A stretch of DNA of 7,669 nt from Escherichia coli (GTDB lineage Bacteria; Pseudomonadota; Gammaproteobacteria; Enterobacterales; Enterobacteriaceae): NCBI RefSeq assembly GCF_003334335.1, contig NZ_QOWQ01000071.1; one strand, 5' to 3'. The notes beneath the pieces were generated by a model. It was not told the origin of the DNA, did not search any database, and saw nothing but the letters and a program-made list of their open reading frames with translations. Shown piece after piece: positions 6,947 to 7,669 of this stretch; positions within the stretch are counted from its first letter, which is position 1; every line of letters begins with the position of its first letter. The translations under genes and the position numbers were made by a program.

Positions 6947-7320
6947 CCACATTTACGCGCTTATCGCTAAGGTAAGCGCTATTCTGCCTGCAGAAATCTA
7001 CCTGCCGAAGTGATGCTTCAGTGGTAAGCGGCTCACCAAAACCGTATTGATATTTACTGAGAGGCCAGCTCAACTATTTAGAGCAACAGATCGTGTACCC
7101 GGTTTGCCGGCCAGTCCTAGATATGCTCAATGACATAACGCATCCATTTTTCTGGCTCCACATCGTTCAGACGGCATGTGCACAATACCAAAACGGCAAG
7201 CGTTTGAGGCGAAGCACATATATACAGGACAGCTTTATCGTCATTGCATGTAGTGGCACACTAAATTTGGCCACCTGATGAAAGGTGATATTCTCACCAC
7301 AACACAAAACAGGTGACTTA

Positions 7321-7590
7321 ATGAACAAGAAAACCAAACGAACCTTCACCCCTGAGTTCAGGCTGGAATGTGCACAGCTGATTGTTGATAAGGGCTACTC
7401 ATATCGACAGGCCAGTGAAGCGATGAATGTCGGTTCAACCACGCTTGAGAGCTGGGTACGCCAGCTCAGGCGAGAGCGCCAGGGTATTACGCCCTCTGCC
7501 ACACCCATTACTCCAGACCAGCAACGTATCCGCGAGCTGGAAAAGCAAGTTCGCCGTCTGGAGGAACAAAATACGATATTAAAAAAGGCT
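7321..7590 (+). CDS. IS3-family transposase OrfA (HTH DNA-binding and leucine-zipper part), C-terminal end and downstream orfB displaced by the IS30 insertion
   Basis: [90 protein letters not shown] closely parallels IS911/IS3-group OrfA proteins as recalled (...[31 protein letters not shown]...). The open frame after ...KKA runs into IS30 sequence. Confidence 0.75.
7581..7587 (+). other. A AAA AAG slippery heptamer, the canonical IS3-family programmed -1 ribosomal frameshift site, in the orfA frame (tta aaa aag)
   Basis: Heptamer AAAAAAG at 7581-7587 with codons AAA AAG in the orfA zero frame, at the position where IS911/IS3 elements shift from orfA to orfB. The expected downstream orfB is replaced by IS30 from 7593. 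Confidence 0.5.
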
Positions 7591-7592
7591 GT

Positions 7593-7669
7593 TGTAGATT
7601 CAATCTGTCAATGCAACACCCCTTTCAATTATCTCTTTCGGTGTTTTGAACTTCAGTGTCTTTCTCGGT
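7593..7669 (-). mobile_element. Right end of IS30 (terminal inverted repeat and adjacent sequence), with the element running from the window end leftwards to its terminus at 7593
   Basis: 7593-7669 TGTAGATTCAATCTGTCAATGCAACACCCCTTTCAATTATCTCTTTCGGTGTTTTGAACTTCAGTGTCTTTCTCGGT is the exact reverse complement of the IS30 right end as I recall it (...ACCGAGAAAGACACTGAAGTTCAAAACACCGAAAGAGATAATTGAAAGGGGTGTTGCATTGACAGATTGAATCTACA). Confidence 0.85.
7600..7669 (-). CDS. insI: IS30 transposase, C-terminal 23 codons plus stop (partial; the rest lies beyond the window end)
   Basis: The minus strand reads ...[21 protein letters not shown] with the stop (plus-strand tca 7600-7602) inside the terminal inverted repeat, as in IS30. 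Confidence 0.8.

Follow-up and report, generated by a model that had tools for sequence, protein, structure and literature searches.

Two bodies of earlier work are closest to the nested insertion sequences (ISs) described here: studies of how IS30 chooses its targets, and the two IS911 copies of Escherichia coli K-12 that carry an IS30 inside them. IS30 targets its own inverted repeats as well as hot spots; its circular intermediate has the inverted repeats abutted with a 2-bp spacing, and bases left mismatched where IR and HS join are dealt with by repair systems of the host (PMC9333248). In the passage of PMC12445084 that cites Olasz 1998, the hot spots are given a 24-bp symmetric consensus. 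IS911 of K-12 is known to be interrupted by IS30A (PMC9333248), and the interruption of IS911 by IS30 is curated in the K-12 record. Both K-12 cases, IS911A::IS30A (insN / insI1 / insO, in the CP4-6 prophage) and IS911B::IS30D (in KpLE2), read ...ATATTAAAAAAGGCT-AC, then IS30, then AC-CGCGCTCTT..., with IS30 lying 5 nt past the frameshift heptamer and splitting orfA from orfB.

The stretch of DNA analyzed here (the window; 7,669 nt of E. coli contig NZ_QOWQ01000071.1) ends in a nest of the same kind, with IS30 at a position identical to that in the two K-12 copies. The K-12 copies carry AC beside IS30, whereas the window has GT, and they are truncated further, one by a group II intron remnant and the other as a hybrid with IS600. 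IS30 nested in an IS911-like element is thus known in kind, and neither the specificity of IS30 nor the K-12 cases are new; only mildly new, and perhaps undescribed, are the connection drawn between frameshift cassette and IS30 half-site and a possible footprint of the IS30 spacer. Our reading, which we hold with high confidence, is that an IS911-like element inserted at deoX and that IS30 then inserted, in hot-spot fashion, at the frameshift cassette of that element.

Layout of the nested elements

The IS3-family part of the nest (7249-7592, plus strand) comprises 344 bp, the left part of an IS911-like element of 1258 bp that is truncated by IS30. It is preceded by GCA (7246-7248), the target triplet of the IS3-family insertion, whose second copy lies past the window after the right inverted repeat. 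The element opens at 7249 with TGTAGTGGCAC, and comparison with the reverse complement of the right end gives a left terminal inverted repeat at 7249-7274 (plus strand, TGTAGTGG...TTGGCCAC). An ATG at 7321 starts orfA, whose native part, codons 1-90 by translation (7321-7590, plus strand), carries a PF01527 helix-turn-helix and encodes MNKK...QNTILKKA, after which the frame stays open into IS30 and out of the window. The A AAA AAG heptamer for -1 frameshifting lies at 7581-7587 (plus strand) in the orfA frame, in the context TT(A AAA AAG), and is separated from IS30 by the five bases GCTGT (7588-7592). The last two of these, GT at 7591-7592 (plus strand), stand where the 2-bp target duplication of IS30 would be expected.

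IS30 begins at 7593 with TGTAGATTCAATCTGTCAATGCAACAC... and fills the rest of the window on the minus strand (7593-7669), matching the reverse complement of the K-12 IS30A right end at 77 of 77 bases. This part holds the right inverted repeat of about 26 bp (7593-7618) and the last 23 codons and stop of the transposase gene (7600-7669, minus strand); the other 1144 bp of IS30 lie past position 7669. Chance resemblance is ruled out for both parts of the nest. The initial annotation had placed the left end, the heptamer and the start of a reversed IS30 right end at these same coordinates, and had read orfA as intact up to ...ILKKA with the slippery site in frame, all of which our comparisons and translation confirm.

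The orfA frame runs past its native codons through IS30 to a stop 11 nt beyond the window, giving a 119-aa OrfA-IS30 read-through protein. This protein keeps the helix-turn-helix and most of the leucine-zipper region, with the last 13 residues exchanged for IS30-encoded sequence, and it may retain some residual OrfA function. For annotation, ‘transposase, partial’ fragments ending in ...ILKKA(T/V)VDSI(C/G)Q are OrfA-IS30 read-throughs.

The interrupted IS3-family element

We rebuilt the 1258-bp element from window positions 7249-7590, AC and, taken from a sister locus (see below), the part beyond IS30. Many chromosomes and plasmids of E. coli carry it without interruption at 100% identity, as do some Klebsiella, Salmonella and Shigella plasmids; window positions 7249-7592 are the left part of this intact element and differ from it solely at 7591-7592. 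PGAP labels the intact element ‘IS3 family transposase, programmed frameshift’ (CDS at L007 373-1550), and a -1 slip at the heptamer of an intact copy yields a 392-aa OrfAB, the length of that CDS. OrfB matches the NCBIfam model transpos_IS3 (NF033516; 260 bits, cutoff 160) and also PF00665 (DDE/rve), and OrfA, besides PF01527, matches transpos_IS3 in part. The element has 5'-TG...CA-3' ends (left TGTAGTGG..., right ...CCACTACA; L003 and L008), with inverted repeats that have the 8 terminal bases and the TTGGCCAC block in common and are otherwise imperfect copies. These ends, together with orfA and orfB in frames 0 and -1 with a heptamer and a 3-bp target duplication, are features of IS3-family members. 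Intact OrfA has 103 aa, ends in ...KKATALLMSDSLNGSR and is present on at least 1000 contigs. The initial annotation had considered that orfA might naturally end at the junction, which would make the element complete; intact copies continue to ...KKATALLMSDSLNGSR, and we reject that possibility.

The element resembles IS911 in its TG...CA ends with the TTGGCCAC block, its overlapping orfA and orfB, its 3-bp target duplication, and its A AAA AAG followed by GGCTACCGCGCTCTT, with an OrfAB of 392 aa in the 1258-bp element; the stretch ATATTAAAAAAGGCTACCGCGCTCTT is conserved in both. It is nevertheless too divergent to be IS911 itself, since its alignment with the left part of K-12 IS911A has matches at 222 of 348 bases (about 64% nucleotide identity) and OrfA is about 55% identical. 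Under the ISfinder naming convention, elements take one name only above roughly 90-95% identity. PGAP, PLSDB and cluster names yield for this element only ‘IS3 family transposase’ or the misnomers ‘IS602’ and ‘InsN of IS911A’, and a guess that it might be IS1351 or IS1230 led to nothing. For IS911, an RNA structure downstream of the heptamer that stimulates frameshifting has been described. Around the heptamer of an intact copy of the 1258-bp element, 140 nt folded no better than shuffled sequences (z = -0.75), and an Rfam search returned no frameshift element.

Two further features of the element came to light. Rfam isrC (RF01387), a family named for a Salmonella island-encoded, Hfq-binding sRNA, matches window positions 7317-7439 (plus strand) and L007 369-491 with 150 bits (threshold 39); this is the first ~120 nt of the IS3-family orfA, which suggests that the Rfam family corresponds to the 5' end of an IS transcript. 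In addition, a group II intron (ltrA) splits orfB of the 1258-bp element after ...GATATTACGTAT (L001 ~5997-8260), and K-12 IS911A has the remnant of a group II intron at its homologous position (L005 ~3691, K-12 ykfC), which makes this position in orfB a second recurrent landing site of a mobile element in IS911-like elements.

The locus beyond the window

Sister loci were collected by an exact look-up of the predicted 119-aa read-through protein, which returned nine contigs. Six of these, L008-L013, are identical to the window across 7249-7669; L008 spans the whole window, with 50 mismatches outside that interval, and has the read-through gene called at 7930-8289 with PF01527. The sister loci read deoX, 302 bp, the left 344 bp of the element, IS30, AC-CGCGCTCTTAATG..., orfB, ...GACCACTACA and GCATTACC. 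The initial annotation had proposed looking for orfB and a right inverted repeat across IS30, and both are there: on the far side of IS30 in L008-L013, ACCGCGCTCTTAATG... resumes the IS3-family element and is followed by orfB, the right inverted repeat ending in ...GACCACTACA, and GCA. For L008-L013 we reject both a solo fragment and an assembly chimera as readings of the IS30 end.

The IS30 in L008 is complete (1221 bp, identical to IS30A at 1218 of 1221 positions), is inverted relative to orfA, and encodes an intact 383-aa transposase (NF033563, 276 bits, cutoff 80). Its 1.2 kb lie between orfA and orfB, and orfB is displaced, as the initial annotation had suspected. With the two genes parted in this way OrfAB cannot form, so the IS3-family element would be dead as an autonomous transposon, although its two surviving ends make it conceivable that it could be mobilized in trans. 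For the window itself little is at stake, since what it holds is an apparently dead IS3-family copy with a probably live IS30 beside the deoK operon.

A related claim of the initial annotation, that the nested ISs mark the edge of the deoxyribose island, is refuted by the empty site cattGCAttacc, found in the deoK-positive E. coli L006 in the wider context ...cgtcattGCAttaccgaaacgg..., because the same DNA continues beyond the element in the filled loci. The filled site reads ...cattgca/TGTAGTGG ... CCACTACA/gcattacc (L003, L008-L011), so that in the window lineage the empty-site DNA resumes past the IS3-family element with GCA duplicated. The IS3-family element is a simple insertion 302 bp past deoX and created no boundary.

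Recurrence of IS30 at the frameshift site

The junction between the 1258-bp element and the IS30 right end recurs in 279 complete E. coli records from 267 genomes, where it lies in a wide range of chromosomal, prophage and plasmid settings. IS30 in the opposite orientation, its left end beside orfA at the same dinucleotide of the 1258-bp element, gave at least 15 matches, the 15 listed all being at 100%. K-12 has both orientations as well: IS911A::IS30A uses the same AC dinucleotide with IS30 reversed relative to the window, and IS911B::IS30D has the site and orientation of the window, its far flank being an inverted IS600 broken at the homologous ...AAAAAAAGCA-AC. Since junctions of orfA with either end of IS30 could not be produced by recombination inside IS30, several independent insertions are indicated. 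In K-12 IS911B (L016 4440-4460) the sequence beside IS30D reads AAAAAG, one A short of the heptamer, a decay mutation in the slippery run.

We also scanned for IS30 left ends in IMG/VR and metagenome contigs, obtaining 154 ends with at least 24 nt of flank; a scan of genome contigs for the same end gave one locus only. The IS3-family frameshift region accounts for 113 of the 154 ends, a share (73%) that overstates the number of independent events because the metagenome loci are partly clonal, and for 25 of the 54 distinct flanks. Four host elements appear among them (IS911, the 1258-bp element, IS600 and what we infer to be an IS629-like element, reading ...AAAAAAAGCC-GC-GGCGTACTTCGC with a GC duplication), and both orientations are present. 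Many IS30 copies have hybrid flanks made up of halves of two different IS3-family elements, sometimes inverted, such as IS911 with IS600 or the IS629-like element with IS911 (L016 4126-6802, which is K-12 IS911B/IS30D/IS600; also L020, L034, L035, L023 and others). Recombination among IS30 copies that reside in different host elements would be expected to give such hybrids; these copies would act as portable homology and shuffle the halves of IS3-family elements.

The frameshift cassette as a candidate IS30 half-site

We built a half-site matrix from 37 distinct non-IS3 IS30 flanks, mostly within ordinary genes, with the caveat that one of the 37 (L092) resembles another OrfA. Information is concentrated at T(-13), A(-11 to -7), G(-5) and C(-4) ahead of the 2-bp target, so the half-site can be written T-n-AAAAA-n-GC-n, and its best match in the window is the TTAAAAAAGGCT cassette. 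The candidate hot-spot half-site, the ...ATATTAAAAAAGGCT cassette with the 2-bp target position included (7569-7592, plus strand), scores 12.6 bits with the GT of the window and is the top-scoring 24-mer of the window on either strand; the orfA-side flank ...TTAAAAAAGGCTAC scores 13.2 bits, exceeding all of the ~15,300 window 24-mers on both strands. The orfB-side halves reach 3.3-5.3 bits (top 0.5-2% of window 24-mers), and the site as a whole is far from a symmetric palindrome. As a comparison, the lambda LHS hot spot (cut at 33290/33291) was scored in the same register, and its left half reaches 8.5 bits (top 0.05%).

The position of IS30, five nt past the heptamer, would be explained by this match, since the slippery heptamer and the Ala codon that follows it together make up an IS30 half-site. 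In its 26-30 bp form the IS3-family cassette reads ATATTAAAAAAGGCTACCGCGCTCTTAA. An arrangement of 11 + 2 + 11 bp would fit, in length, the 24-bp hot-spot consensus as given in the part of PMC12445084 cited above. The site shares with hot-spot targeting a 2-bp staggered insertion in a preferred sequence, but differs in being strong in one half only.

We propose that a 1258-bp IS911-like element entered the DNA 302 bp downstream of deoX, with GCA duplicated in the process, and that IS30 would then have inserted at the dinucleotide 4-5 nt past A AAA AAG, with its transposase gene antiparallel to orfA. The cassette TTA AAA AAG GCN, which IS3-group elements need for frameshifting, would serve as a near-perfect IS30 target half-site; this likeness would account for IS30 landing there repeatedly, in either orientation and in several IS3-family elements. 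A sequence that an IS needs for its own expression can thus be a liability, because a slippery site that doubles as the target of another IS leads to recurrent and specific knock-out of IS3-family copies. It is speculative, and in our view rather doubtful, that the IS3-group cassette (TTA AAA AAG GCN), which holds some three quarters of the sampled IS30 copies in four hosts, is the main place where IS30 lands in nature. IS30 would then be a specific ‘parasite of a parasite’ that disables IS3-family transposases and seeds hybrid IS911/IS600/IS629-like flanks, and it would occasionally bring along the 2-bp spacer of its circular intermediate, which would account for the GT/AC pair.

Origin of the GT dinucleotide and alternative histories

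The initial annotation had predicted a 2-bp target duplication on the far side of IS30. In the window lineage this is borne out imperfectly: the far side has the AC found in intact copies, the near side (7591-7592) has GT, and the flanks are GT/AC where other copies at the same site have AC/AC. AC is present in the intact and all other interrupted copies examined. At the IS629-like site, where the true duplication is GC, the orfA side carries GT at 10 ends and AC at 1, and the orfB side AC at 4 and GT at 1, with no other variants on either side. We can account for this tentatively, as a possibility held with limited conviction, by supposing that GT comes from the circular (IR-IR junction) intermediate, whose 2-bp spacer was brought into the new flank. 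After 3'-end cleavage, the non-transferred strands would each retain a 2-nt 5' flap; if a flap were ligated into the 2-nt gap rather than removed, replication would give one GT...AC daughter, and a donor residing in an AC site would yield exactly 5'-GT-TGTAGATTCAATCTG. The top strand of the window, GGCT-GT-TGTAGATTCAATCTG, together with AC beyond IS30, is what this scheme predicts for the top-strand daughter; the deviants at the IS629-like site are solely GT or AC; and the commonest donor sites of IS30 are flanked by these two dinucleotides. The argument is purely inferential, however, and all four combinations of flap and end are possible depending on donor orientation, so that the agreement in polarity counts for little. 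The reciprocal AC...GT product (IRL/GT-CGCG) was not found in complete E. coli genomes, and GC to GT or to AC takes a single transition. Sequence conversion by IS30 has been seen with IR-targeting and is not known from hot-spot targeting, which also speaks against a spacer being retained here. A GT/AC flank, if it did arise by spacer carry-over, would be a natural footprint of a copy-out-paste-in intermediate.

Two other histories of the locus can be weighed against a fresh IS30 insertion next to deoX. The window copy might descend from the widespread AC-type interrupted element, the composite having transposed or recombined into the deoX site and AC having become GT by two adjacent transitions. 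Element, site and IS30 orientation are indeed shared with about 270 other records, the composite retains intact IS3-family ends and is flanked by a 3-bp duplication of its own, and each of the two changes, A to G and C to T, is a transition; the 2.48-kb composite could have moved if the common intact copies supplied OrfAB in trans, but IS911-type transposases have a known preference for acting in cis. Descent would moreover need a tandem double substitution exactly at the duplication bases while the other 419 bases of 7249-7669 stayed unchanged, and non-matching dinucleotides beside IS30 ends recur at another hot spot, always as AC or GT. On balance we consider it rather unlikely. By comparison, arrival of IS30 by IR-targeting, or an origin of the nest as a recombination scar where the deoK island ends, is highly improbable and is contradicted in the lineages examined. 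Inverted repeats are indeed targets of IS30 (PMC9333248), ISs gather past deoX (IS66-family in L003 and L006, another IS3-type element in L009), and hybrid flanks from recombination between IS30 copies are common elsewhere. IR-targeting, however, concerns the repeats of IS30 itself; the target has no IS30 repeat, and the site lies 344 bp from the IS3-family end. The statement in the initial annotation that IS30 targets the ends of other ISs does not stand (PMC9333248); the insertion is well inside the element and looks to be of the hot-spot type. Both IS3-family halves flank IS30 in the correct order and orientation, with a clean GCA duplication and a known empty site, so no rearrangement is needed, and insertion of the IS911-like element followed by hot-spot insertion of IS30 remains our preferred reading.

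Surroundings of the deoX site

The same nested structure is present in seven complete NCTC86-type genomes. In this type (L003 7206-9906, and likewise L004), an IS66-family element sits 13 nt inside the right repeat of IS30 with an 8-bp duplication, ATTCAATC, forming a three-level nest of IS66 in IS30 in the IS3-family element, with an extra IS66-like end fragment alongside. The stretch past deoX thus also collects IS66-family elements, and in L006, which has the empty site, ISEc8 lies 69 bp further on. A metagenome scaffold, L014, has the GT junction of the window with unrelated DNA (CTTAACGATACC...) in place of orfB past IS30, which may reflect either a rearrangement or chimeric assembly induced by repeats.

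Downstream of the nested ISs, L009 (5556-10082) and L010 (4651-9177) carry another IS3-type element, a TonB-dependent receptor fragment, two esterases (one with an enterochelin-esterase N-domain) and an ABC transporter. These genes look like an iro/salmochelin module, in which case the deoK genes would be one module of a larger mosaic island. At the other end of the window, a UxaA/altronate-dehydratase-like gene (207-1457, minus strand) that lies upstream of the deoK operon is broken up into ORFs at 207-644 and 726-1457; PGAP reports its homologue in L003 as frameshifted with an internal stop, and the gene is thus a pseudogene.
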